Assembly (NCBI GenBank): GCA_050011565.1
Contig: JBEKIW010000005.1
Location: forward strand, 1-64,000
From: Dehalococcoidia bacterium
GTDB lineage: Bacteria; Chloroflexota; Dehalococcoidia; GIF9; UBA5629
Direction: 5' to 3'
Length of the DNA stretch: 64,000 bases
Shown one piece after another: positions 8,086 to 51,308 of the stretch. Position 1 is the stretch's first letter, and each line of letters begins with the position of its first letter. The notes beneath the pieces are model-generated. The model did no database searches. It was not told the origin of the DNA and saw nothing but the letters and a program-made list of their open reading frames with translations. A program made the translations under genes and the position numbers.

Positions 8086-8787
8086 TTACGATATCAGGGG
8101 CTTCAAGTCAAGCTTGATACCCGGCCCCATGGTGGTGGTCAAAAAGGCACTTTTAATATACTGTCCCTTGGCGCCGCCCGGTTTAGCCTTGTTTATGGCC
8201 TCCACCAGCGCAGTCAAGTTTTCCAGAAGCTGAGCCTCATCGAAGCTGACCTTACCGATCGGCACATGTATAATAGCTGTCCTATCCAGCCGGAATTCCA
8301 CCCGGCCTTTCCGGGCTTCGGTAATACCTCTGCCCACGTCTTCAGCAGCTACAACCGTTCCTGACTTGGGGTTAGGCATCAACCCTTTACGACCCAGTAT
8401 TTTGCCCAGCTTTCCAACCTTCCCCATCATGTCGGGGGTAGCTATACTCACGTCAAAATCAAGCCAGCCATCTTCAATTTTCTTAATGAGGTCATCACTA
8501 CCCACATAATCGGCTCCTGCTGCTTCGGCAGCCCTGGCTGCTTCACCTTGAGCGAAGACAGCAATCCTGACCTTCTTTCCTAAACCATTAGGCATAAGGG
8601 CTATACCCCGCACCTGCTGGTCAGCACTTCTGGGGTCGACTCCCATCCTTAGATGCAGCTCGACAGTCTCATCGAAGCCGGCGAAGGCTACTTTTTTAGC
8701 CAGTCCTACAGCCTCACCGGGTGTGTATGCATTCTCTTTATCCAGCAGCTTAGTTGCTTCTTTGTACTTTTTCCCTCTAAATGTCAT
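8086..8787 (-). CDS. rplA: 50S ribosomal protein L1
   Basis: [23 protein letters not shown]. Confidence 0.97.
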
Positions 8788-9212
8788 GATTTCTCCACGT
8801 CGATTCCCATGCTGCGGGCGGTGCCCTCGATAATCCGCGCGGCTTCTTCCAGGTCTAACGCGTTCAGGTCTCTCATTTTAACGCGGGCAATCTCGTACAC
8901 CTTTTCACGAGGTAATGTGCCCACTTTTTGCTGCCCTGCAGTGCCGCTGCCTTTTTCTATGTTTAAGGCTTTTTTCAACAGGTCGGATGCCGGCGGGGTT
9001 TTAGTGATAAAAGTAAATGACCTGTCTTCATATATAGTGATCTCCACAGGGACGATGGACCCTGCCTGAGAGCCGGTCTGCTCGTTATAGTCCTTGCAGA
9101 AAGCCATAATGTTGACACCATGCTGCCCCAGCGCCGGACCTACTGGCGGCGCCGGTGTAGCCTTACCAGCCTCAATCTGAAGTTTAATGATAGCTTTAAC
9201 CTTTTTAGCCAT
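8784..9212 (-). CDS. rplK: 50S ribosomal protein L11
   Basis: [21 protein letters not shown]. Confidence 0.97.
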
Positions 9213-11371: not shown

Positions 11372-11444
11372 AGCCCACAACCAGATTCGAACTGGTGACC
11401 CCGTTCTTACCAAGAACGTGCTCTACCTGCTGAGCTATGTGGGC
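11372..11444 (-). tRNA. tRNA-Thr(GGT)
   Basis: Cloverleaf; anticodon arm CGTTC-TTGGTAA-GAACG; CCA not encoded. Confidence 0.93.
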
Positions 11445-11516
11445 AAATTTTCCACATATTATACAGTATAGAATCAAATTATACACTATTTTAATAAAGC
11501 CGCAAAACCTCCGAGA

Positions 11517-11602
11517 TGGTGGAGGGGGTAGGATTCGAACCTACGTAGCCTTCAGGCGGCAGATTTACAGTCTGCTCCGATTGTCCACTCCGGCACCCCT
11601 CC
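11517..11602 (-). tRNA. tRNA-Tyr(GTA)
   Basis: GCAGA-CTGTAAA-TCTGC; long variable arm; CCA. Confidence 0.93.
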
Positions 11603-11622
11603 CAACCCTGGCTTAAAGTCAA

Positions 11623-11695
11623 AGCCCGAGAGGGGAGTCGAACCCACTAACCTACCGATTACAAGTCGGTTGCGCTACCATTGCGCTACTCGGGC
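11623..11695 (-). tRNA. tRNA-Thr(TGT)
   Basis: ACCGA-CTTGTAA-TCGGT; GTTCGAC T-loop. Confidence 0.93.
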
Positions 11696-11746
11696 AAATC
11701 AAGAAACCTCTCGGGCAACATCAATCTGAACAAACTACGGGTTGTT

Positions 11747-11775
11747 AGTATATGAAAAGGTATGGCAAAAGTCAA
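11747..11775 (-). promoter_or_regulatory. Sigma70 promoter of the tRNA-tuf operon
   Basis: TTGACT-17 nt-TATACT. Confidence 0.65.
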
Positions 11776-11946
11776 GAAACTGCGCTCCTCTAGGGTCTGA
11801 ATACAATCAAACGGAATGGTTGCATTGACAATGCCCCATTGTTATAATTGATTGACTAGCGGGATAGCGGACGGTAATAGGTAGACACGGTAACAAGGTC
11901 TGGGCGCTAATCTCATCCCGCTGAAATAGTGAGAGAGGTTAAGAAG

Positions 11947-12402
11947 ATGGCAGAAAAGCCTCGAAGGGCTAGAGTCCAGAATATCATAAAAAATCTCCTC
12001 GATTCGGAGATTCCTGAGATACAGTCCATGGCCAACAAGTTGGCAGAGCAGATCAAAGAGTTAGAAGAACATAGTTCTAGGCTCCGAACCTACATTACCC
12101 AAATCGAGAACCTGGCGACGGACGAAGCTAGCGCTATGGCTGAGACCCGAATCGGCGATATACTCAAGGATTTAGATAAGGCGTTAGGTGAGCTAAGACA
12201 CAGGTCCAAGAGAAGCTTAGCTACTAGAGCCGAAGCTGCGGTTTCACCTCCAAAAAGAGTGGCTATCGAAGAAAGGCCCGAACGTGAGGCTGAAGAGGTA
12301 GAAGAGGAAGAAGAACCAGAGGAGATCACGCCTGGACAGGGAATGCGGCTGGAAACCTACAAGACCCCGGAGGGGTACCTGATTAAGAAGTCACGCATCT
12401 AA
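11947..12402 (+). CDS. Hypothetical coiled-coil protein with acidic tail
   Basis: GAGAGG SD, heptad pattern, Glu-rich segment; GTG at 11929 is an alternative start. Confidence 0.7.
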   Translation: MAEKPRRARVQNIIKNLLDSEIPEIQSMANKLAEQIKELEEHSSRLRTYITQIENLATDEASAMAETRIGDILKDLDKALGELRHRSKRSLATRAEAAVSPPKRVAIEERPEREAEEVEEEEEPEEITPGQGMRLETYKTPEGYLIKKSRI

Positions 12403-12414
12403 ATTTGGCTTGCT

Positions 12415-12488
12415 GCCCCTGTAGCTCAGATGGATAGAGCAGCGGTTTCCTAAACCGCGTGTCGGGCGTTCGAATCGCCCCAGGGGTA
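12415..12488 (+). tRNA. tRNA-Arg(CCT)
   Basis: GCGGT-TTCCTAA-ACCGC. Confidence 0.93.
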
Positions 12489-12508
12489 CTTTGATTCCAA
12501 AAAGATAT

Positions 12509-12584
12509 AGGGGTGTAGCTCAGTTGGGAGAGCAGCGGTCTCCAAAACCGCAGGTCGCGGGTTCGAATCCTGCCGCCCCTGCCA
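12509..12584 (+). tRNA. tRNA-Trp(CCA)
   Basis: GCGGT-CTCCAAA-ACCGC; CCA end. Confidence 0.94.
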
Positions 12585-17931: not shown

Positions 17932-18363
17932 CTATTTAGTAACAGTGAAAGTGCCTGTCATCACTGCGGGATGCACATCGCAACGGAAGAAATAATCCCC
18001 CGGAGTTGTCGGCGCCGTAAAACTATAAGTAATTGTTTTGGGGCCTGTAATAACCTCGCCTTTGAAAATCACCTCTGTTGCTGCTGACGTTGTATAAATA
18101 GCGACGTTGTGAGGGACAGCCTCTTTGTTATCAAAGACCATAGTCACATTTGCGCCTGCAGGAACAGTGATATTACTTTTGTCGAAGCGGAAGTTCATTG
18201 CGCTGATATTGACAGTAACTGCTTGCCCGCCGGGAGCTGGAGCTGGTGGAGTACTGGTATCTTGTGTGGGGGTAGAATAAGGTGTAGATGTGCATGCTGT
18301 CAGCACAGCTACCATCAGCCCTAAAATTAGAACCAACGCATGTTTCTTGGAGTACTCTTTCAT
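17932..18363 (-). CDS. Cupredoxin-domain lipoprotein
   Basis: Lipobox LTAC; HN...CDVHP..M type-1 copper ligands. Confidence 0.88.
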   Translation of the reverse strand: MKEYSKKHALVLILGLMVAVLTACTSTPYSTPTQDTSTPPAPAPGGQAVTVNISAMNFRFDKSNITVPAGANVTMVFDNKEAVPHNVAIYTTSAATEVIFKGEVITGPKTITYSFTAPTTPGDYFFRCDVHPAVMTGTFTVTK

Positions 18364-18410
18364 GTTACCTTCCTTTTATTTTATTTGTACATGAGATATG
18401 TACGATAACA

Positions 18411-18477
18411 ATACTATCAAGCTTAAAATTGCAAAGTCATAAAATAAAAGGCGGGAAAGTTAAAAAATTATGACATT
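18411..18477 (-). promoter_or_regulatory. Shared phased-repeat promoter, copy 3
   Basis: AATGTCATAATTTTTTAACTT...TTTTATGACT-18 nt-TAGTAT. Confidence 0.65.
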
Positions 18478-18547
18478 CCGACGAATACAGCGAAGAGGCA
18501 TGAACACGGCTGATACCAGATTATAGCCGATAAAGAGAGTAATTATT

Positions 18548-21500
18548 TTAATCTCTAACTATGGACGAACGGCGTTTAACTTGATGCCGTTCCAGGGGTA
18601 ATGTAAACAGAAAAGTGGCACCGCGGCCAGGTTCGGACTCCACCCACATACGACCGCCATGAGCTTCTACCAATCTCTTGCAAACCAGAAGGCCTAATCC
18701 AATACCTTTTACTGTACTATCTTGAGAAAATCCCAGTCGCTCGAATGGCTTAAATAACTTGTCCTGGTCATGCAGCGAGATACCTATCCCCTGGTCTTTA
18801 ACTGCCACCACCAAACTTTCCTTTTCCGGTTTGATGGAGATTGTTATCTGACTATCTTTTGGCGAATACTTAACTGCGTTTTCCATAAGATTACGCAATA
18901 TGTGTTCCAGCCTGACCGGGTCGGCATAGATCTTTGGCAGCTTCGACCGAACATCTATAATGAACTTTTGACTTGAAGATTGCTGTCTTATCCTATCAAC
19001 CACATCTTGCACCAGCGCTTCAATGTTAATTGACTCTCTATGAAGCAGGAGGCGCTCTGATTGAGCTCTGGAAAGTTCAAGAAGATTCGACAATAGATGA
19101 GACAGTGACTCTGCTTCCCAAACTGCATCCTGCAGCAGTTGGCTTCTTTCCTCAGCAGATAGACGTGTTTCTTCAGTTAATATTGTATGCAGAGCCCCGA
19201 TAATAACAGTCAGCGGCGTACGCATCTCGTGCGATACTAAACCGATGAATTCGTCCTTCAACTCGTCTAATTTTTTCCGTCCGGTAATGTCGCGGAGAAA
19301 TACAAAAAACCGCCCGCCCTTGGTATCCATATAATTGGCACTGACTTCGATATCGACAATCATACCGTCCTTGCACCGGTGGCGAGTCTCAAAGCGATCC
19401 GAACCAAGCTCCACCATTCTCTGAATGTGTTGAATAGTATCTTCTGCCGTTTCTATCGCCTCTACATTTCGGACGCTCATATTTAGTAGCTCTTCTCGAC
19501 TGTAGCCGACTAGGTTGCAATAGGCGTCGTTCACGTCCAAGAAACGGCCATCTTTGTCTGTGAGCCAGAAACCATCGATGGCTGTGCTGATAATAGCTTT
19601 TATTTCCTCCTCTGCTCGTTTGCGTTCGGTAGTATCAATCAAGGACAATACCAATCCTTCCACCTTGCCTGAAACATTCTTTACCGGTGTGAGCGTCCAA
19701 TCCCAATAGGTAATGCCCCTCTCTGGCTGATCGGAAAACACAAAGGGTTTATCCCGGAACTCTACTGCCTTTCCGGTATCTCTTACCCGTTTAAATATGG
19801 CCAGATTCTCCTCGTCAGGGAAAAGAGCAAAGTGATTTTTACCTGGCAAGTCCTCAACAGGATATCCGGAACCCATTGCGTAAGCGGAATTAACCCTAAC
19901 AAAATTAAACTGTGGGTCGAGATATGCTAGATGGGTGTTTGTATTTTCGATGGTAATCTGCAGTGTCTCCTTCTCCCTGGTTAGCGCTTCCTCTGCTTGC
20001 TTACGTTCGGTTATGTCCTGGCCTTGAGCGATAGTAGCCACGATAGTCTTGCCGTCCACAGCGTACACATTAGCCGAGTTCCATAGAACCGTACGCACCT
20101 CCCCCTTAGCACCGACAATAGGTATTTCAACCGTTTCCCATCGTTCCCCGGTCAGAGTGCGGCGAATCTTTTTTAGGGATGACCGCCGGCTTTCCTCTGG
20201 AAAAAGTATATCTAATTTTTTACCTACCACTTCATAAGCCTGCTGTCCCGTAAGGCTTTCAAAAGCATGATTAAATCGTGTAATGCGAAATGACGGGTCC
20301 CATACAATGATGGGAGCATTGGCATATTCCAACAAGTTATTTAAGTAGTCGCTCGTTTCTCGCAGCGTTTTCTCGGTTTGCTTGAGCTGTGTGATGTCGC
20401 GGTTGACCATCACCATTCCCACCCTATTCCCGCTGCTGTCTTCCAGCGCGCTTGCTGACACAAACATATAAACGGCAGTTCCATCCTTTCTTCTATGGAT
20501 AAGCTCTCCGTTCCAAATTCCCTTTTTAGAAATTTCTGTGAGCGCCTTCTCTCTGGTGTCGCCGATAAACGTCCCCTTGAGGATAGCGGACAATGGCTTG
20601 CCTATGACCTCTTCAGGGGCCCAGCCATATGCCCTCTCCGCAGCCCTGTTCCAGGCCTGAATATTTAAATCCAGATCGGTAGCTATAACGGCGTCGGAGA
20701 CATTGTTCAGTAAATTTGCCTGGTACTGGAGCGCGTCCTCTGCCAGCTTGCGCTGCGTGATATCAGCGATGGCACCTACAATATGGATGGCACGTCCGTT
20801 TTCATCACGAACAATTTTTGCAGTATCCTCCACAAAAAGATAGTGACCCTTTTTGTGCCGCATACGGTATTGAAGACGATAGCCCTGAGCGGTATTAATA
20901 ATTTCTGACAGTTGTGTTCTGACAACTGCGAAATCGTCGGGATGCATCTGGCTGTACCACCAACGTCGAGTTAACGAAACCTCGTCGGACCTATAGCCGA
21001 GAAGCTCTTCAAAACCGCTAACAGCGATTACCTTGCCTGTGTCAAGAGAGATATCATAGACCGTAGTATGGGAAGCGGCGGACGCCAGCCGGAATCTCTC
21101 CTGGCTCTCCAGAAGAGCTGTCTTCGAAATGCTGTATCCTGACCTCTCTAAAAGCTCCCATTCCCCTTCCTGTTTAATAAGAGCAAACTCGTGATTTCTG
21201 ACAACATCAAGTACATCGGCAGCATTGCACTTATCAAGGCAATAGGTACATAGCGCCAGCATCTTATATTGGCCTATAACATCGCTAACGGCCGCTTCGT
21301 AATCCGTGAAATTTTCCCAGTCTTTTCTTTCAAGCCAGCAGGTGTTGCCGGTTAGTCGCAAGCCGGAATAGCCCTTAGCCAAAGCTTGATTCAGTTTATC
21401 TATCCAACCATCGAGCACTCTCTGTAAGTCGAAAACACCGTCTTGGAGATACCATTTATCATTGGGCATTATCTCTATCTGGCCTTTGGCCAAATATTGA

Positions 21501-39114: not shown

Positions 39115-39202
39115 GCCGAGGTGGTGGAACCTGGTAGACACGCCATCTTGAGGGGGTGGTGGGCGCAAGCCCGTAGGAGTTCAAATCTCCTCCTCGGCAC
39201 CA
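39115..39202 (+). tRNA. tRNA-Leu(GAG)
   Basis: CCATC-TTGAGGG-GGTGG; long variable arm; CCA. Confidence 0.93.
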
Positions 39203-39226
39203 TTTTTGATATAATGGAGCATCGTC

Positions 39227-39282
39227 ATGTAGCGGCGAGGCTTTAGCCTCGCCGATGCGACCTTAAAAGGTCGCAACTACAT
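39227..39282. repeat. GTAG-type REP-like double-hairpin element
   Basis: ATGTAG...CTACAT ends enclosing CGGCGAGGC/GCCTCGCCG and TGCGACCTT/AAGGTCGCA hairpins. Confidence 0.65.
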
Positions 39283-39326
39283 TAAAAAATAAATTATTGA
39301 CACAGCCTTTAATATAGTAAAAACGT

Positions 39327-39401
39327 GCGGAAGTAGTTCAGCGGTAGAACGCCTCCTTGCCAAGGAGGAAGTCGCGAGTTCGAATCTCGTCTTCCGCTCC
39401 A
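39327..39401 (+). tRNA. tRNA-Gly(GCC)
   Basis: CCTCC-TTGCCAA-GGAGG; CCA. Confidence 0.95.
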
Positions 39402-39412
39402 TATAATTTTAG

Positions 39413-39488
39413 GGCGGCGTAGCCAAGTGGTTAAGGCGGGGGTCTGCAAAACCCCTATTCAGCGGTTCAACTCCGCTCGCCGCCTCCA
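39413..39488 (+). tRNA. tRNA-Cys(GCA)
   Basis: GGGGT-CTGCAAA-ACCCC; CCA. Confidence 0.94.
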
Positions 39489-39494
39489 CTTCTT

Positions 39495-39577
39495 GCCGAG
39501 GTGGCGGAATGGCAGACGCGGCGGACTTAAAATCCGCTCTCCGCAAGGAGGTGTGGGTTCGAGTCCCTCCCTCGGCA
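39495..39577 (+). tRNA. tRNA-Leu(TAA)
   Basis: GCGGA-CTTAAAA-TCCGC; long variable arm. Confidence 0.94.
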
Positions 39578-39634
39578 CTTTTACCATACTGGACACCGTG
39601 CATCTCTTCATACTAAGAAGGCACGCAGAAGGGT

Positions 39635-43784: not shown

Positions 43785-44372
43785 TTGAGTGAACAGACAG
43801 TCCGGTCTTTTATTGCCATTGAATTGCCGGAAGCGGTTAAAACAGGACTACAGCAGCTTCAAGCCCAGTTGACATTACCCCAGTACAGCTTTGTAAAATG
43901 TGTGGCACCCGAAGGTATGCATCTTACTCTAAAATTCCTGGGCAATATATCGGCTAATAAAGTAACCGATATAACCGGGGCTATGGAACAGGCTAGTCAG
44001 GGAGTTAGCCCCTTTCAGCTACAAATTACTGAGGTGGGTGCCTTTCCTAATTTGAAACGCCCGCGCGTCCTGTGGGTAGGTATAAAGGGCGAGGTGGATA
44101 AACTCGTAAGCTGGCAGCAGCGATTAGACAACGGACTGGTCCCGCTGGGCTTCGCCAAAGAAGCACGACCGTTTACGCCGCACTTGACCTTAGCCCGTCT
44201 GCGAGATAATTGTTCGCCCGTGGACAGCTTGCATCTCGGCGAAACAGTCGCCAATGCACAGGTTAAGGTAAATTATAAATTTACGGTAACTAGCCTGAAT
44301 CTGATGAGAAGCCAGCTTTTGCCAACAGGAGCCGTCTACAGCCGTCTGGCCGAAGTAAAATTAAAAAGCTAG
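43785..44372 (+). CDS. thpR: RNA 2',3'-cyclic phosphodiesterase (2H family)
   Basis: HLTLKFLG and FTPHLTLAR. Confidence 0.92.
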   Translation: MSEQTVRSFIAIELPEAVKTGLQQLQAQLTLPQYSFVKCVAPEGMHLTLKFLGNISANKVTDITGAMEQASQGVSPFQLQITEVGAFPNLKRPRVLWVGIKGEVDKLVSWQQRLDNGLVPLGFAKEARPFTPHLTLARLRDNCSPVDSLHLGETVANAQVKVNYKFTVTSLNLMRSQLLPTGAVYSRLAEVKLKS

Positions 44373-44467
44373 AGTTGTTGTCGCACCCAGGGCACGATGT
44401 TATAATATCTAGTCTGTCCACGACTGAGACCTGCCAGACCTGAACTGAGCACAGACTGGCAATAGAT

Positions 44468-44542
44468 TCCCGAGTAGCTCAGCGGTAGAGCGGGCGGCTG
44501 TTAACCGCTTGGTCGTAGGTTCGAGTCCTACCTCGGGAGCCA
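44468..44542 (+). tRNA. tRNA-Asn(GTT)
   Basis: GGCGG-CTGTTAA-CCGCT; CCA; TATAAT at 44401. Confidence 0.95.
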
Positions 44543-44660
44543 ACCCCCACTAAAAAAGAGCCTATGTTCTCCTGGCACAAAGCAGTAACACTATTACTCT
44601 CCTGCCAGTGATATAATAGATATTGAGGCGCTATGCTCCCATTTTCTCTTAGGAACGTCA

Positions 44661-45275
44661 GTGAGGTTAGTTATGGCTTTACAGGATGAACTAAGGGCAT
44701 TGTTAGACAACAGCATAGAGGAACCACCACTCCAAGTTTTCCTTCAGCAGCACCCTGAGATTTTGATGCGTACGTTTGGCCAGGGAGCGCAGTACTCAGT
44801 AGTGCTCCCTAAATTCCGTCTGGCCGAAGATTTCATTCCAGATTTCGTCATGATTGGACGCCGGTCAGGATCAGCAGGGACATCGTGGGACGTGGACCTA
44901 ATAGAAATCGAGCCTTCCGCCGTAAGGGGGTTATTATTCACTAAGAAGTATCTAGCTCGGGGGCATCTTAGGGTGGCCATGTCACAGGTTGATGACTGGA
45001 AGATATGGATGGAGAAGTACGAGCAGACTATCTTCGTGCCCAAAGCATTTGAGCAGCTCAAGGCAATAGGAGCGTGGGACGACCACCCGGAGTTCTATAC
45101 TCCAACAATTGGCACTCATCAGCATATGATAGTTTGGTATCGCATTATCATTGGACGAAGAAATGATTTCGATGATCGAGGAAATGAATACCGAAATCTT
45201 ATCTTGAAAGAATCTCGCAATAGAGTCGAGATTGTTACATGGGATCGTCTGCTGGACAAAACAAGGCTAATTTAA
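44661..45275 (+). CDS. Shedu (SduA/DUF4263)-like nuclease, catalytic domain only
   Basis: E..LQ.FL..HP, IPDF, IEIE, SQV..W, IIIGRR, IVTWDRL. Confidence 0.75.
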   Translation: MRLVMALQDELRALLDNSIEEPPLQVFLQQHPEILMRTFGQGAQYSVVLPKFRLAEDFIPDFVMIGRRSGSAGTSWDVDLIEIEPSAVRGLLFTKKYLARGHLRVAMSQVDDWKIWMEKYEQTIFVPKAFEQLKAIGAWDDHPEFYTPTIGTHQHMIVWYRIIIGRRNDFDDRGNEYRNLILKESRNRVEIVTWDRLLDKTRLI

Positions 45276-45311
45276 TCTTGTGGTGCAACCAAATCACAAA
45301 TGGAATAATAT

Positions 45312-45346
45312 CTTGGCCGTAGGTCTGAATCCTACCTCGGGAGCTA
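45312..45346 (+). repeat. tRNA-Asn 3' end copy 1
   Basis: 30/35 identity to 44508-44542. Confidence 0.85.
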
Positions 45347-45409
45347 CATCACCTTCTCCCAAAGCATATGCTAGGGGAAAAATCACACCGCATTAAGTGA
45401 GGCATAGAA

Positions 45410-46591
45410 ATGGAAAGTTCTGCGCTTACTCCGGAGAAACAATTTCTGAAATATCATGATAGGCTGAGAGAGGAACTCAACTGGGCACATACACATCATG
45501 AAATTTGCAAAACATTAAGAAAGCATAAGTCCGATTACCTGAATGAAATGAATGCAGCCCCTTCATTTTTTGGTTTGACAATCGATGCCCATCTTTTTGC
45601 CACCATAATGAGCATCAATAAATTAATTGATGAGCACTCCAGCAGCTCTCTCAAAATGACGAGGTTTTTTGAATTTATTGAGGGAAACTTCAGTATTTTC
45701 TCAGACGAGTCATACATAAAGCATCTTCGTGTTAAAGGCTACGACGATGAAGATTGTGGGCATTGGCTAAAGAAAAGAACTAAAATTACGCGTGACACTA
45801 TAAAAGAAGATAGGCAGGTCATTAAAAATATACCTATTGAGAATCTGAAGGATTGGAGGGACAAGAAACTTGCACACATAGATGAAAAGTACGTCCTGAC
45901 AGATACCAAAGTATCTCAAAAAAGCCCTATTACAAGCGCTGATATAGATAAAATAATCAATAAATTACACGGGATATTAAATCGTTATTTATTGGCATAT
46001 GACGGTTCGGGATGGGAGATCGGTTTACCCGCTGGAGTATCTGATCAGATAGTGTATGTATTAGACTCAATTAGGTTACACCGACACCAGCATGCAAAGA
46101 AAAGCCTGCCGAAGAGCGCCAAGAAGCCCAATCAAAAGAGGCATTTTATACTTATTCTATATGAACAATTTAAGGAGCTATCAGAGTCCACCGGAATTAT
46201 TTTTTTAATATTCGGAGTTATCTTTTTAGTTCTTGCTGTAGTTTTACTTCAGGTAAATAGCGTTCAAGAAGTTGCATCTAGACTGGTGTTCCCTACGGCA
46301 TTAGCAACGATATCATTAGGAATAGGGTTTATAGCAGTTGGCGTGACAGTCAAGTCTGATAAAAGATATTCTGAGTTATTAGGAAGAATACTTCATCAGG
46401 TAGAAGATTTGCCGTATAAATTAGGTGACAAAGTTAGGCTACCAAGTGTACTTGGTGACTATAGTAAAGAGGCTGCTCAAAAGAGGTTGGATGAAGATAC
46501 AAAAAATAATAGGGGTCAGCCACGTGGTGAATTATTTGAAGTAGAGAAAGGAAAATGGGCAATTTATTGGGGTGGAAAATATCCACTGTAA
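45410..46591 (+). CDS. HEPN (AbiU2-like) domain fused to a 2-TM region
   Basis: Helical domain with RDKKLAH (Rx4-6H); two hydrophobic helices in the C-terminal third. Confidence 0.65.
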   Translation: MESSALTPEKQFLKYHDRLREELNWAHTHHEICKTLRKHKSDYLNEMNAAPSFFGLTIDAHLFATIMSINKLIDEHSSSSLKMTRFFEFIEGNFSIFSDESYIKHLRVKGYDDEDCGHWLKKRTKITRDTIKEDRQVIKNIPIENLKDWRDKKLAHIDEKYVLTDTKVSQKSPITSADIDKIINKLHGILNRYLLAYDGSGWEIGLPAGVSDQIVYVLDSIRLHRHQHAKKSLPKSAKKPNQKRHFILILYEQFKELSESTGIIFLIFGVIFLVLAVVLLQVNSVQEVASRLVFPTALATISLGIGFIAVGVTVKSDKRYSELLGRILHQVEDLPYKLGDKVRLPSVLGDYSKEAAQKRLDEDTKNNRGQPRGELFEVEKGKWAIYWGGKYPL

Positions 46592-46706
46592 AGCATGATT
46601 TGGCTAACTATTTTCCTTAGGTCCTACTCATAGGTAGCTTGATTGAGCAGCCACCCGAAAGTGGATGATATGCAGAAGAAGATTCAAAACTATTTTTGTC
46701 CCCAAC

Positions 46707-46925
46707 TTACTTTGTAACAGTCCGCCCATGCTCCTCCAGCCACTTTATAACCTCATTCCAGGACTTGGCCTTTGCTTTTTGGGGAGCTTTCGACTTACGC
46801 CACCTTATTCCACCTTTGCCTACAAGGAACGTTCCAATATTCTTGTCACTACCATCATTGACCTCGAATCTAACCATCTTAGTCCCCTGTAGTTCCTGGT
46901 TTTCCATGCAGATTTTTACTCTCAC
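46707..46925 (-). CDS. Small basic hypothetical protein
   Basis: 72 aa; AGGAGG SD before GTG; TG-TATAAT upstream. Confidence 0.7.
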   Translation of the reverse strand: MRVKICMENQELQGTKMVRFEVNDGSDKNIGTFLVGKGGIRWRKSKAPQKAKAKSWNEVIKWLEEHGRTVTK

Positions 46926-47078
46926 AGTTTGCCTCCTATTATATACTCTTGCGAATACGAACTGTAACTACGATTATACACTCGCTCAACACAAAATAGA
47001 AGACCTTATACCGAGTTCTGTCAAGCCGCCCCCGCCGCAGTATCTTGTAGATGGCCTGCCGGCCGAGCCTGTAATACC

Positions 47079-47111
47079 TGGCCGTAGGTTCGAGTCCTAC
47101 CTCGGGAGCCA
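47079..47111 (+). repeat. tRNA-Asn 3' end copy 2
   Basis: 32/33 identity to 44510-44542. Confidence 0.92.
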
Positions 47112-47460
47112 GCTGATTCCACCAGGAGGAAAGGAATGAGATAGGGGGCAATTGTAACCTCCGACCCCAGTGATGTGAAAATGGCGCTATCCCAATTTAG
47201 CTACAGTCATCACATTATTGATATTCCTACTCAATGTGTTAAAATGACGAACGGCTTCGCTGCCTTCAGATAGGCTGTTACTGAAAATTCAGTTTAGCAC
47301 ACAATAAATTAACATTAATTCAAACCCGCTAGAAAACAATTAGAAGGAGGGTAAAACCGTGGCTACGAGCGGACCTATAGCAAAGCGCCATATCAGTAAG
47401 GTTACAAAAATTCAATCTTTCATTAAGCATAGAATTCATGGGGTAAAGGAGTTGTGTTGT

Positions 47461-48897
47461 ATGAAAAACGTAATTCTGCACAAGTTTCTAACTCCCATGG
47501 TATTACTTATCATAGTGAGCACCGTGGCTGCCGGATGTGCTACCCAGGAGGGCACGGTCCAACAAACCATCGACCCGCAGGAGGCCCAGCAGGTCGCCTA
47601 CGATGCCACTGTCTACGGCTTCCCGCTGGTTATCATGGATCTGACCCGGCAGGTCCTCACAGCAGTCCCCGCACCCAACGCGAACGGGGCACCGGTCAAC
47701 CAGTTCGGCAATAAGAAGACATTTCCTGATGCGACTTTTACTAATGTAGTAAACCCTAATGCCGACACGCTTTATTCATCAGCCTGGGTTGATACCGCTA
47801 AAGAGCCGATTATCCTTTCGGTTCCGGATACTCAAGGTCGCTACTACCTGATGCCCATGCTTAATCTCTGGACGGATGTTTTTGGCTCGCCCGGCTCACG
47901 GACTACCGGCACCGGGGCCGGCAATTTTGCCATCACCGGCCCGGATTGGAGCGGTAATTTGCCTGACGGCATCACAGAAATGAAGTCTTCGACCAGGTGG
48001 GTGTGGATAGTCGGGCGCATCGCCTGTACCGGCCCTTCGGACTACGAGGCCGTGTGGAAACTTCAGGACCAGCTGAAGCTGACACCGCTCTCCGCCTGGG
48101 GCACCAATTATGTGCCGCCGACTAATGTCCCTGTCGACCAAGGTGTCAATATCAAAGTGTCTCCTCTCAACCAGTTGCTGACTCTAGATGCGGCCAACTA
48201 TTTCAACTATATCTGCCAGTTGATGGTTGACAACCTTCCCTACGAAGCGGATGCGCCATTACTGGCCAACCTGGCAAATATAGGCATCAAGACTGGAGCT
48301 GACTATAAATCGTATTTTGCCGGGCTGGATGACGGTGTTAAGTCAGCAATTCAAACAGGCTATCAGTCCGCTCTGGCCAAAATTCCTACAGCAAACATGG
48401 GAAACTCAAAAAATGGGTGGCAAATGGTGTACGATACGGGTGATTATGGGACTAACTATATGTTTAGGGCAGCTATAGCTTATCGGGGGCTGGGCGCTAA
48501 TTTAATTGATGATGCTTTCTATGCCTCAGCATCAGCCGGCAGCGATGGAGCTAAATTTTCCAGCGATGATAAATATGTAATTCATTTCAATAAGGATGAG
48601 ATACCACCGGTAAACGGCTTCTGGTCGATTACCATGTACAACGATAAAATTCTATTCGCAGCCAACCCGATCAATAGATACTGTCTGGGCTCTTTAAGTG
48701 ATCCACCTCTTATAAAAAATCTCGATGGCTCGATTGATATTTATATACAGCGTGATTCGCCTGACTCTGCTAAGATGCCAAATTGGCTGCCGACACCGGC
48801 CAGCGGCGATTTTTCATTGACGATTCGCCTGTACTGGCCGCAGGAGGCGGTGCTGGACAAGACCTGGGTACCTCCGGCAGTGCAATTGGTTGAATAG
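47461..48897 (+). CDS. DUF1254/DUF1214 lipoprotein
   Basis: YGFPLV, PNADTLYSSAW, GRYYLMPML, FWSITMY, NWLP, RLYWP; lipobox AAGC; AAGGAG SD. Confidence 0.9.
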   Translation: MKNVILHKFLTPMVLLIIVSTVAAGCATQEGTVQQTIDPQEAQQVAYDATVYGFPLVIMDLTRQVLTAVPAPNANGAPVNQFGNKKTFPDATFTNVVNPNADTLYSSAWVDTAKEPIILSVPDTQGRYYLMPMLNLWTDVFGSPGSRTTGTGAGNFAITGPDWSGNLPDGITEMKSSTRWVWIVGRIACTGPSDYEAVWKLQDQLKLTPLSAWGTNYVPPTNVPVDQGVNIKVSPLNQLLTLDAANYFNYICQLMVDNLPYEADAPLLANLANIGIKTGADYKSYFAGLDDGVKSAIQTGYQSALAKIPTANMGNSKNGWQMVYDTGDYGTNYMFRAAIAYRGLGANLIDDAFYASASAGSDGAKFSSDDKYVIHFNKDEIPPVNGFWSITMYNDKILFAANPINRYCLGSLSDPPLIKNLDGSIDIYIQRDSPDSAKMPNWLPTPASGDFSLTIRLYWPQEAVLDKTWVPPAVQLVE

Positions 48898-49081
48898 AGA
48901 ACTCTTAGCCCCAGCTCTTTGCAACCAACCCGATTGGGATTTTACTGTCTTCTTTATCATCTCAATCATTGTCTGTCCAATAGGTTTTCTAGTAGGGGCA
49001 ATCGGAAGCATAGTTCTCACCATCAAGAGGAATAGGCGGCTGGGTTCAGGCCAATCCAATGCCCAACGGGATACCCCATAG
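48890..49081 (+). pseudogene. Probable C-terminal fragment of a membrane protein
   Basis: Single TM VFFIISIIVCPIGFLVGAIGSIVL; weak TTG start; ends at the att-like copy. Confidence 0.4.
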
Positions 49082-49083
49082 CC

Positions 49084-49108
49084 GGTTCGAATCCTACCTC
49101 GGGAGCCA
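49084..49108 (+). repeat. tRNA-Asn 3' end copy 3
   Basis: 24/25 identity to 44518-44542. Confidence 0.9.
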
Positions 49109-49310
49109 ACTTCGCAAAATGCGCATCTTTGATACGGCACGGCATTTTCAGAATAACTGGCATTGCCTTACTAATGTACTGGACAGGTACCTTGACAGCT
49201 TAGCGTTCGTAGCCGTATGATATTGCACCGAGGCGAAAGGTTTGGGAAACAACTTATATAAAGTCGAACGCCAGGTATATTAAGAAGCCAAATCGGCAAA
49301 AGGAAATTGA

Positions 49311-51308
49311 ATGCGTAAAGTTAAAGCAACGGCGAAGAGAGACAGATTAATAATATTTATTGACTGGCTAGCGGCTCAACCTCTGTTGACTGAATTGACA
49401 TTGACAGCAATCACAGTCTTATTCGGCATGCAAGTTCTGAGAGCATTGATACCGGGCATTTACTGGATACTGGGCAGCAGAATGGGTTTGGGCTTAGTTC
49501 AGCTCGGGTTAGTCGGATTCGCCATCTTTCTCACTGGTTTTCTGTCCGGTCCGCTGAGCTGGCTTGTGGGCAATCGTCGTCTGATTATTATTAGCGTTGC
49601 CGGACTGGGTCTAGCGCGATTGTTCATGCAAGTCTCATGGGATGAGCCGCTTTTTAATTTGGGTTTAGCGATAATAGGAACAATTTTATTCGTTATCTTT
49701 CTGCCGACGTGCTTTGAAGACGCACGTCTTCGTGGTAGCGCCTCTGTCTCCCGCTATGCGCTGGGACTTCTAGGGGGCTTGGCACTGGATACGGCCATCA
49801 ATGGTGCTTTTGGTACATTTGACATCGTCTGGCAGGCCAAGCTATTACCTGTATTACTAACATTGCTAATATTCGTTATTCAACTTGTGCTCCTGATTGG
49901 CATTGCACCGGCAATCTACAGTGTGTCGACAAAATCATCGGCCACGGCGACCGGCCCAATTTCTCTGGCACGTTCATTTACCTGGCTGGCTATCGGACCT
50001 TTCCTGTTCCTGGAACTGGTAGTTTTCCAGAACATACCACGTGTGGCAACGCTAACCAATTGGCCGTTGCCAATGGCATTCGGACTAACGCTATTAGCCC
50101 AATTAGCGGGCATGGCCACCGCTATCCTGGTTATTACTAAAAACTGGCGAATGTTATGGCCCTGGGCGCTTGGCGCCGGTGTCATCCTAATAGCAACTCT
50201 GGTGTTTGCCTACCAGCAGCCTGCTACGCTGATAGCTATACTGTTTCTTATCGGGCAGGTGCTGGTATCGTCTATTATAACCATGGTTTTGGTAGGCATC
50301 GCTTCCAACACGGGCAAAACCAGGCAGTCCAGTCTATGGATTGCCAATGGCATCGGCATGATTCTGTTTGCTCTGCTCATAATTGCCTACTATGCTGTTT
50401 ACAGTGTGAAGCTTCCCTACCACAACCCCATTATTGAACTCATAGCTGGTGGTATCATCGCTGTCTGTGCTATAGGTGCCGTAATCTTCGGGCAACAAAA
50501 GATGAAGGTGGACACGAAGCTGTGGGCGATGTCGACATTTGCACTGATTCTTTTGGCGTTGCCCCTGGCTCAAATGGTCACCTGGCGTACACCCAGTGCA
50601 GCTACTGGCCAGGGATTGCCCGTAAGTGTGATGACCTATAACTTGAACAATGGCTTTAACCTCAAGGGTAAACTCGACATAGATGAAATCGCTAAAGTAA
50701 TTGAAAGTAACAGACCTGATATCGTCGCTCTGCAGGAAGTATCCAGAGGCTCCGTTGTAAATGGCCGATTGGATATGCTGGCATACTTATCTTACCGGTT
50801 GCATATGCCGTATATTTTTGGTCCGACAGCTGGCCATTTCTGGGGCAATGCCATACTGAGCCGTTACCCAATAGTGGCATATTCAACAGAAAACCTAACA
50901 TCCTCCGAGTCATTAATAGATGGCGGCTTTATCGTAGCACTGATAGACTTGGGAGCTAACCAACAAATCAAGGTTATCGCTACACAATTCGATAATGTGG
51001 AATTGAACACAGAAATTCACCAGCAACAGGCTCAGACGATCATCGATTTCTGGGGAGGACTTCTCGGTACAATACTTCTAGGCGACTTCAGCGCACAATC
51101 TACAAGCCAAGAATTACTTAAATTGCGCCAAGCTAATCTTAAAGACTCTACGATGGGATGGAATGCCGCAAATACTTATCCTTCAAACAATCCAAAGGAA
51201 AGGATAGATTACATCTTGACATCGGCCGACCTCACTGCGAGCGATGTCGGGGTGCTGTCAAGCACTGCCTCGGACCATCTACCTGTCGTCGCCGTGATAA
51301 AAAAGTGA
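49311..51308 (+). CDS. Multi-TM protein with C-terminal endonuclease/exonuclease/phosphatase domain
   Basis: Many TM helices; MTYN, ALQEV, GNAILSRYP, RIDYI, SDH. Confidence 0.85.
   Translation: MRKVKATAKRDRLIIFIDWLAAQPLLTELTLTAITVLFGMQVLRALIPGIYWILGSRMGLGLVQLGLVGFAIFLTGFLSGPLSWLVGNRRLIIISVAGLGLARLFMQVSWDEPLFNLGLAIIGTILFVIFLPTCFEDARLRGSASVSRYALGLLGGLALDTAINGAFGTFDIVWQAKLLPVLLTLLIFVIQLVLLIGIAPAIYSVSTKSSATATGPISLARSFTWLAIGPFLFLELVVFQNIPRVATLTNWPLPMAFGLTLLAQLAGMATAILVITKNWRMLWPWALGAGVILIATLVFAYQQPATLIAILFLIGQVLVSSIITMVLVGIASNTGKTRQSSLWIANGIGMILFALLIIAYYAVYSVKLPYHNPIIELIAGGIIAVCAIGAVIFGQQKMKVDTKLWAMSTFALILLALPLAQMVTWRTPSAATGQGLPVSVMTYNLNNGFNLKGKLDIDEIAKVIESNRPDIVALQEVSRGSVVNGRLDMLAYLSYRLHMPYIFGPTAGHFWGNAILSRYPIVAYSTENLTSSESLIDGGFIVALIDLGANQQIKVIATQFDNVELNTEIHQQQAQTIIDFWGGLLGTILLGDFSAQSTSQELLKLRQANLKDSTMGWNAANTYPSNNPKERIDYILTSADLTASDVGVLSSTASDHLPVVAVIKK

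Follow-up and report, generated by a model that had tools for sequence, protein, structure and literature searches.

Small repeat-bounded units with defence genes at a tRNA-Asn integration hotspot in an uncultured Dehalococcoidia genus

The tRNA-Asn array and its cargo

The stretch of DNA analysed here (the window) comprises the first 64,000 nucleotides of contig JBEKIW010000005.1 from a Dehalococcoidia metagenome-assembled genome (MAG; assembly GCA_050011565.1) of 2.0 Mb in 8 contigs, 99% complete, referred to below as genome G000, contig C5. Within it, a tRNA-Asn gene is followed by three direct copies of its own 3' end, which delimit three short units with protein-coding cargo between two core genes (Table 1). 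The feature is of a known kind: a tRNA integration hotspot occupied by remnants that resemble cis-mobilizable elements (CIMEs) and bear defence genes.

The tRNA-Asn gene was confirmed by Rfam (69.9 bits), with no second RNA family in 44000-49600, and is present in single copy among the 48 tRNAs of G000. The 15-mer TCCTACCTCGGGAGC, which comes from the acceptor/T-arm end of tRNA-Asn, occurs four times in the window (0.09 expected), at positions 44526, 45330, 47095 and 49092 and on the + strand throughout, and none of 100 shuffles attained this count. Repeat copies were delimited by sequence reading, alignment and fuzzy search. An earlier reading of the letters of this stretch (the original prediction) had described a tRNA-Asn gene followed by three direct 3'-end copies at these coordinates; ARAGORN, the 15-mer count and alignment all agreed with it, and its unit sizes were reproduced. 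It had also held that copies 1 and 2 share an internal variant, which is true: both contain '..TAATA..TGGCCGTAGG' and represent one junction type. Copy 1 is preceded by ~12 nt of the junction formed by the helix-turn-helix (HTH) gene stub, or arm, that ends unit 2. The units are thus bounded by attL- and attR-type repeats, as CIMEs are, and the array resembles a tandem tRNA island in its intact tRNA followed by direct partial 3' copies, its variable occupancy and the empty site in a relative.

A fifth partial copy of tRNA-Asn, ~47 nt long and extending through the anticodon loop, lies on the minus strand at about G000:C4:6039-6090 (locus L011). It carries the GGCCG variant of window copies 1 and 2 and is located outside any tRNA gene. 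No recombinase adjoins it, and a truncated HTH homologue is found at a distance of 2.8 kb. In the metagenome collection this stretch forms a 6.7-kb contig of its own (L091), and its placement within C4 may therefore reflect a choice made during assembly.

The cargo of the two tRNA-proximal units appears, from domain matches, to serve phage defence. The unit 1 protein scores 52.3 bits against SduA_C (curated cut-off 27), consists of this domain only, without the N-terminal region of longer SduA proteins, and has a PD-(D/E)xK-like pattern by eye. The unit 2 protein scores 88 bits against HEPN_AbiU2 (cut-off 26.8); by eye it contains an RDKKLAH motif, which conforms to Rx4-6H, and then two hydrophobic helices, and a C-terminal region of ~90 aa extends beyond these two predicted membrane helices. 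No PADLOC or NCBIfam model matched the HEPN protein, and no close relative of it was confirmed in a scan of species genomes. The combination of an AbiU2-type HEPN domain with membrane helices makes a new membrane-anchored HEPN defence protein possible. The original prediction had named a Shedu-like nuclease and a HEPN protein in these units; the Pfam families uphold both identifications, while PADLOC, proposed as a check on the cargo, recovered SduA for unit 1 and offered no model for the HEPN protein. The GC content of unit 2 is 0.35-0.41, versus 0.48-0.51 for the contigs of G000, and the DUF1254+DUF1214 protein of unit 3 has a lipoprotein-like N-terminus by eye.

A simple promoter scan found a 10-of-12 promoter-like site at 44378-44406, before tRNA-Asn, and none before the Shedu-type and HEPN genes (44543-44660 and 45347-45409). 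Transcription of these two genes by read-through from the tRNA promoter is conceivable, because both are co-oriented with the tRNA and the latter has a promoter-like site. Overall, the promoter and terminator scan was uninformative.

Table 1. Features of the tRNA-Asn array and its flanks (window coordinates)
Feature	Position	Strand	Evidence or description
Left core flank: LigT-type 2'-5' RNA ligase/phosphoesterase	43785-44372	+	Pfam LigT_PEase 1e-28
tRNA-Asn(GTT)	44468-44542	+	ARAGORN; integration target, attL side
Unit 1	44543-45346	+	804 bp
Short Shedu-type nuclease gene, 204 aa (unit 1)	44661-45275	+	Pfam SduA_C/DUF4263 9.5e-14; PADLOC SduA 6.9e-20
att copy 1	45312-45346	+	Degenerate partial tRNA-Asn 3' end, 30/35 bases match
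Unit 2	45347-47111	+	1765 bp
AbiU2-type HEPN protein, 393 aa (unit 2)	45410-46591	+	Pfam HEPN_AbiU2 7.2e-25
72-aa open reading frame, family unknown (unit 2)	46707-46925	-	No Pfam above cut-off, no PADLOC/NCBIfam match
Unit 2 right arm: C-terminal stub of resolvase-type HTH gene	46969-47078	-	Encodes ..LGRQAIYKILRRGRLD-stop, fused to att repeat
att copy 2	47079-47111	+	32/33 bases match tRNA-Asn 3' end
Unit 3	47112-49108	+	1997 bp
DUF1254+DUF1214 protein, 512 aa (unit 3)	47359-48897	+	Pfam 2.5e-48 and 1.4e-31
Unit 3 right arm: 3' stub of small gene	48945-49083	+	Gene is 147 aa long in G012
att copy 3	49084-49108	+	24/25 bases match; T-loop to CCA only
Right core flank: Exo_endo_phos protein, 665 aa	49311-51308	+	Pfam 1.1e-24

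A variable site between conserved flanks

A search for the repeat pattern in 41 genomes, G000 included, found a match in 16, and at least two same-strand copies on one contig in eight: G000, G001, G002, G004, G005, G010 and G012, as well as G022, which belongs to another genus. The first copy was always an intact tRNA, and 7 of the 14 genomes of the genus (counting G000) have such multiple copies. Gene clustering revealed a common frame in nine genus genomes, in which an amidohydrolase gene and the LigT-type gene (family F02, adjoining tRNA-Asn in all nine) stand to the left, and the Exo_endo_phos gene (family F01, after the last repeat in relatives), a T2SSE ATPase gene and four more families to the right. 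In G008 the right flank directly follows tRNA-Asn, and this site is therefore empty. The 75-nt tRNA-Asn is 95-100% identical across the genus, and the identity of core DNA between G000 and its relatives is ~89% (G012), 85-87% (G004) or 70-80% (the rest).

A scan of the metagenome collection with the unit 2 arm motif returned 31 loci, 13 of which, judged by their flanking genes, are further versions of this locus. Some of these loci may be conspecific with the genomes, so not all are independent, and the set was selected by the arm motif; L085 is the window itself, L070/L071 resemble G001, and L083/L088 are duplicates of each other. Together, six other genus genomes and the 13 metagenome contigs contain one to four repeat-bounded units with different and often defence-like cargo. 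Arrays reach five repeat copies (L086), and 30 units in 17 loci range from 320 to 4783 bp with a median of 1388. The tRNA-Asn site is a genus-wide integration hotspot between conserved flanks. Comparison among relatives, which the original prediction had called for, disclosed gain, loss and different content at repeat boundaries, along with the empty site.

Neither the orientation nor the order of the cargo is fixed. The 51 cargo open reading frames (ORFs) of >=100 aa counted in 14 loci comprise 18 that run in the direction of the tRNA and 33 that run against it; the cargo of G000 is co-oriented, its count of four including one probably spurious 147-aa ORF over the arm. A module with a 130-aa ORF opens the array in L068, occupies a middle position in L075 and closes the array in L076, L082 and L093. 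This module is 89-93% identical among loci versus 79-93% for the flanks, and because it is only modestly above flank identity, its changing position can be explained by vertical descent and local deletions and is not decisive for movement. L093 corresponds to L068 minus one repeat and one unit and looks like the product of recombination between two arm copies.

Defence-related families recur throughout the cargo. Pfam was run on 64 of 70 genome ORFs (all except six beyond the arrays of G022 and G008) and identified SduA_C and TIR_2 in G005, DUF4917 and Mrr_cat in G004, an AAA_21 ATPase in G001 and HATPase_c_3 in G010. In 58 of 71 contig ORFs (all except those of L070 and L091 and two of L094), it found SIR2_2 twice, SLFN_AlbA_2 twice, AAA_15, HNH, DUF4238, GIY-YIG and an Hsp70-like protein with a pP_pnuc_1 nuclease domain. 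PADLOC was applied to 67 selected ORFs (29 genome and 38 contig, with the 130-aa module taken once and most short ORFs dropped), and nine matched at E <= 1e-5: HEC-04 (7.7e-220), PDC-S21 (5.5e-78), SduA, a TIR model, Aga_Nuclease, a PtuB-like HNH and AriA/Old/GajA-like models, with weak matches to TPR and mad1 among the nine. The HEC-04 match is a 534-aa ATPase at L045:3897-5501 (G001 unit 1) that aligns over its full length with this PADLOC candidate system and shares its unit with an integrase fragment. The Shedu-type proteins of G000 and G005 have only 26% identity over 113 residues, so these genes were acquired independently. The two general expectations of the original prediction, att-type junctions at a tRNA integration site and defence-rich cargo, were supported.

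Several further observations concern the surroundings of the site. G008 contains a degenerate pseudo-tRNA-Asn of nearly full length (88% over 66 nt) at C1 ~208,776-208,841 (locus L053 ~8776-8841), ~39 kb from the true tRNA-Asn and inverted relative to that gene. Upstream in the window are tRNA clusters of Thr-Tyr-Thr / Arg-Trp (11372-12584) and Leu-Gly-Cys-Leu (39115-39578); the second cluster and the hotspot are also syntenic in several relatives. The closed chromosome L112 was uninformative, as it has the right-flank gene and no tRNA-Asn within 10 kb.

Gene stubs at unit ends and the absence of recombinases

Units 2 and 3 both terminate on the right in gene fragments, which corrects the statement of the original prediction that no remnant is present. 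The terminal 143, 99 and 86 nt of G000 unit 2 align with unit right ends in G004, G005 and G001, respectively, at 82-86%. This arm corresponds to residues 139-157 of a 164-aa HTH_23/HTH_7 protein of G001, which is intact only in unit 1 of that genome, beside the integrase fragment; across 61 genomes the protein is present in three, all of this genus, and at full length in G001 only. The gene breaks off at codon ~138, where it meets the repeat at the identical nucleotide in G000, G001, G004 and G005, for which one deletion of the remaining HTH gene and the recombination module is the simplest explanation. Other truncation points also occur: the stub is shorter in L081 and longer in L083/L088, and in L084/L094 the repeat itself is partly deleted. 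Splitting of the HTH gene by integration, with attP inside the gene as in integrases of the Sulfolobus spindle-shaped virus (SSV) type, was rejected, as no N-terminal HTH coding sequence was found at any left end and the intact gene is without the att core.

The arm of unit 3 has a similar character, its last 164 nt being 97% identical to the end of a 550-bp unit of G012, with the remainder of the two units unrelated. In public run X1, the probable source of the MAG, a further contig, of comparable depth (48.6), has 48945-49027 in common at four differences and diverges on both sides; the unit 3 arm therefore occurs in another context in this sample. BLAST among all units revealed homology at right ends only, with ragged inner limits, and no homology at left ends. 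Three separate patches of homology connect G001 unit 1 with G002 unit 2, and the two units retain different leftovers of one integrase ORF: the former encodes a 178-aa fragment that covers only profile positions 79-166 of 172, and the latter has other pieces of this ORF and a truncated Mu gpT capsid gene.

Repeat length varies, with at least four classes, ~47 nt (extending through the anticodon loop), ~40, ~35 (with the HTH arm) and 25 nt, and several integrase specificities are therefore implied. Some junctions inside tRNA-Asn arrays instead combine the HTH arm with a tRNA-Met 3' end, at L075:2927, L076:6197, L079:3354 and L093:3386 (oriented coordinates), and it seems from them that the element family used two tRNA targets or that units moved between both sites. 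The tRNA-Met gene of G000 is located at C1:711856-711930, and L077 has the arm near a tRNA-Met gene. The stubs, patchy homology, repeat lengths and mixed orientation fit repeated integration by several element types followed by ragged decay. Descent by decay from an integrase-bearing element, the origin of CIMEs, would account for the gene stubs that form the arms of units 2 and 3 and for the integrase and capsid fragments of relatives; no intact parent was found in the 61 genomes or the viral contigs searched.

A six-frame search of G000 yielded 10 matches to PF00589, 5 to PF07508 and 2 to PF00239, none of which is on C5, in agreement with the original prediction that the units encode no integrase. 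In the window units no integration or transfer genes were found, which is the state of a CIME. The six-frame search of C5 also gave no intI-type tyrosine recombinase next to the array, such as an integron would have, and an intact integrase gene, such as each element of a tandem island would contain, is missing from C5 and from the loci of relatives examined. The original prediction had suggested that a tRNA-Asn-targeting integrase be sought elsewhere, and none was identified in the tRNA-adjacent set of G000, the stretches fetched from 61 genomes or viral contigs. The tRNA-adjacent integrases of G000 are at tRNA-Val, tRNA-Ala and tRNA-Glu. The best relatives of the G001 integrase fragment are in G016 (74% identity, a 148-aa frame near a contig end) and G035 (47%, 343 aa). 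Viral contigs with the exact 25-nt tRNA-Asn core were considered as an attP source and rejected, since 12 of 12 matches are complete tRNA-Asn genes in phage tRNA clusters; viral contigs gave no match to the HTH-arm motif. On C4 (locus L011), a 645-aa ORF at 18057-19994 encodes a large serine recombinase with Recombinase and Zn_ribbon_recom domains and no Resolvase-domain match. Its 3' end overlaps tRNA-Lys(TTT) at 19925-20000, and it may represent another tRNA-linked element.

Origin and significance of the stacked units

Several published systems resemble the array. CIMEs have lost integration and transfer genes and kept attL and attR, and they undergo tandem accretion and composite transfer with integrative and conjugative elements (ICEs) (PMC5704250). 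The present units resemble those of the ICESt1/ICESt3 family in retaining att repeats without integration and transfer genes and in their tandem arrangement at the 3' end of a target gene, and CIMEs form composite blocks that are able to move together (PMC5704250). In contrast to CIMEs, no related functional element was present in any locus seen here, the units are smaller by far (0.3-4.8 kb) and belong to an uncultured member of the Dehalococcoidia, and cis-mobilization is putative. Within the same bacterial class, the ssrA locus of Dehalococcoides harbours tandem islands bounded by 20-bp repeats, 15 of which are without an integration module and were proposed to be CIMEs (PMC3146451). Both arrays extend past a single-copy small RNA gene and involve direct repeats of its 3' end (PMC3146451), whereas here the target is tRNA-Asn, the cargo consists of defence genes rather than reductive dehalogenases, and the units are much smaller. 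The DsiB/CcrB-type serine recombinase module that the ssrA islands have at attL does not occur here, as C5 has no PF07508/PF00239 match.

Tycheposons of Prochlorococcus are elements separated only by partial tRNAs, with fragmented integrases (bioRxiv 10.1101/2020.12.28.424599). The tRNA islands of Prochlorococcus share with the present array side-by-side elements, in which newcomers push older ones inward and scattered partial tRNAs mark old events (bioRxiv 10.1101/2020.12.28.424599), but tycheposons have integrases and often replication modules, none of which was seen here. Defence islands at tmRNA and tRNA genes carry intY and the HTH regulator gene alpA at opposite ends (PMC12595487). They likewise are not self-transmissible, carry defence cargo between direct repeats and have a small HTH gene at the attR end, although they are 20-55 kb in size and encode an integrase required for excision (PMC12595487), whereas only an HTH stub is found here. 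By analogy, an island of the intY/alpA type is a plausible template for the lost parent element. Core defence hotspots are also variable, defence-rich regions between conserved core genes (PMC10250203), but the units described here are individually bounded by att-type repeats. The literature searches made here, to which this negative is confined, listed no paper on a tRNA-Asn array in Dehalococcoidia.

The array is not an integron. It is like one in that small gene units are stacked at a single chromosomal site and vary among relatives, but there is no intI and no attI or attC, and a common orientation or promoter is lacking; every junction is instead a partial 3' end of tRNA-Asn (or tRNA-Met) of 25 to ~47 nt, and cargo across loci is not co-oriented. 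The integron analogy drawn in the original prediction thus fails on the absence of an intI-like gene, on junctions that are tRNA 3' ends of at least four lengths rather than attC, and on orientation.

The best explanation, which we consider probable, is that integrative elements accreted in tandem and subsequently lost their recombination modules, as in CIMEs, with occasional exchange of blocks. Several kinds of integrative element would have inserted into the 3' part of the single-copy tRNA-Asn gene, each insertion rebuilding the tRNA and displacing a partial 3' copy and older inserts outward. The inserts would then have lost their recombination genes by deletions, some anchored at the repeat, leaving short repeat-bounded remnants that may retain useful cargo, mainly anti-phage genes. 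In G000, units 1 and 2 would behave as one recent low-GC block of 2.57 kb, and unit 3 would be older. Units could be lost by recombination between repeats or between arms, and blocks could occasionally be exchanged among lineages, either with a passing integrase-bearing element or by homologous recombination. We observed directly the repeats, a hotspot of variable content, the gene stubs and the lack of recombinases, and infer from them the order of events and the route of block movement. The original prediction had listed decayed large islands as its alternative; in relatives, ragged and patchy homology and the truncated integrase, Mu-like capsid and HTH genes, the last fused to the repeat, speak for decay and, by the terms which that prediction set itself, count partly against it, but no large integrase-bearing island was present at any locus examined.

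A number of results weigh against this explanation. An integrase match was obtained for only one of the 64 genome ORFs, the fragment in G001, and for none of the 58 contig ORFs, and an intact integrase-bearing element was absent from the site in all of the ~22 loci examined. Of the relatives of the G001 integrase fragment in the 61 genomes searched, none lies beside a tRNA-Asn gene or repeat as far as the ~1.5 kb retrieved on either side shows. Conservation of the arms equals or exceeds that of the coding core (97% versus ~89% in G012; 85-86% versus 70-78% in G005 and G001), which is unexpected for neutral relics. Finally, a block consisting of units 1 and 2 appears nearly unchanged in a run whose flanking sequence is diverged. 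Public runs X1-X5 were examined as Logan contigs. In X4, a soil metagenome from another study, four contigs over 44550-47077 differ from G000 at 0/581, 2/706, 0/239 and 5/1010 positions, so that units 1 and 2 are ~99.7% identical (7 differences in 2536 bases), and one of these contigs bridges repeat copy 1. For the left flank, unit 3 and the right flank, the sole X4 contigs have 56/589, 36/490, 15/199 and 24/258 differences (~91-93% identical), and at the listed variable positions the full depth carries the alternative letter. The identity switch points are at the tRNA and at repeat copy 2, the right one within ~130 nt around this 33-nt repeat. Contigs of X4 break at the repeats, so no contig links the block to the diverged flanks, and an additional contig has the repeat followed by other sequence. 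On these alignments, the pattern looks like recent movement of an integrase-less block; it is compatible with mobilization in cis by an adjacent functional element but indicates no mechanism.

Other runs were informative in different ways. In X3, from another study, the listed contig pieces over units 1, 2 and 3 show 0 differences, and X3 therefore holds the strain of G000. Two apparent absences were discarded. In X5, 44607-46713 is uncovered while the flanks and unit 3 are covered, and joints at 44545>47021 and 44556>47087 are present; these joints are short-sided and the sequence between their sides is unknown, so X5 could not be counted as lacking units 1-2. An X1 joint at 44544>47017 is not read as a deletion, because it most simply stems from the C4 locus, where a tRNA-Asn copy and an arm homologue are 2.8 kb apart.

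The X4 block, the missing integrases and the conserved arms would also be consistent with dedicated minimal, integrase-free cassettes that are captured, stacked and exchanged at tRNA-Asn repeats by an unlinked recombinase, much as in an integron. Further points in favour of such a class are the very small units (median 1.4 kb), the occurrence of one arm with different cargo in four genomes and its fusion to the tRNA-Met 3' end, the presence of the 130-aa-ORF module at the first, middle or last array position depending on the locus, and the 10 tyrosine and 5 serine recombinase matches elsewhere in G000, which could potentially act in trans. Nevertheless, the arms are truncated genes rather than purpose-built sites, unit left ends have nothing in common, integrase and capsid fragments occur, repeat lengths are heterogeneous and cargo orientation is mixed. 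In addition, the 130-aa module is only modestly above its flanks in identity, no candidate tRNA-Asn integrase was identified, and the linkage of the X4 block is unproven because contigs break at the repeats. Dedicated cassettes are thus an unlikely, if tenable, explanation. The stronger proposition that these are working mini-cassettes (median ~1.4 kb), reshuffled and transferred among species of Dehalococcoidia at tRNA-Asn and, by way of the shared arm, at tRNA-Met, and forming a defence 'integron' in function, is one that we regard as rather doubtful. What stands of the non-autonomous cassette reading in the original prediction is the repeats, the absence of a recombinase and the near-identity of units 1 and 2 where flanks are ~8-9% diverged; its integron analogy does not.

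If homologous recombination in conserved flanks, as at core defence hotspots, accounted for all current turnover, including the X4 block, the repeats would be inert scars. The hotspot does lie between conserved core genes, the highly conserved 75-nt tRNA is usable as a left crossover site, and one unit loss is accounted for by recombination between arm repeats. However, the right switch in X4 is at repeat copy 2 even though ~2 kb of 93%-identical unit 3 offered a crossover, and the repeats themselves show that the array was built by site-specific integration, which makes inert scars improbable. Chimeric joins from assembly or binning deserve mention because the source is a MAG and short-read contigs break at these repeats. 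Yet the identical arrangement is present on the 146.7-kb metagenome contig L085, X3 contigs match pieces of all three units exactly, the X4 contig bridges copy 1, and analogous arrays exist in 13 metagenome contigs, in six further genomes of this genus and in one from a second genus; an artefact is accordingly very hard to credit.

Tandem accretion with loss of recombination modules would place the array alongside cases documented for streptococcal ICEs, Dehalococcoides ssrA islands and Prochlorococcus tRNA islands. A defence-gene hotspot is hereby documented in an uncultured, streamlined genus of Dehalococcoidia from peat, soil and sediment, with building blocks that are unusually small and recombinases that are almost wholly lost. 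Its cargo supplies candidates for new defence genes: in G000 the short Shedu-type protein and the AbiU2-type HEPN protein with its membrane anchor, and in relatives numerous neighbours without annotation. The 2.57-kb integrase-less block of units 1 and 2, apparently near-identical in a lineage that is otherwise ~8-9% diverged, is a test case for continued movement of such leftovers. If the units do move, tRNA-anchored stacks would offer small genomes a cheap route for trading immunity genes.

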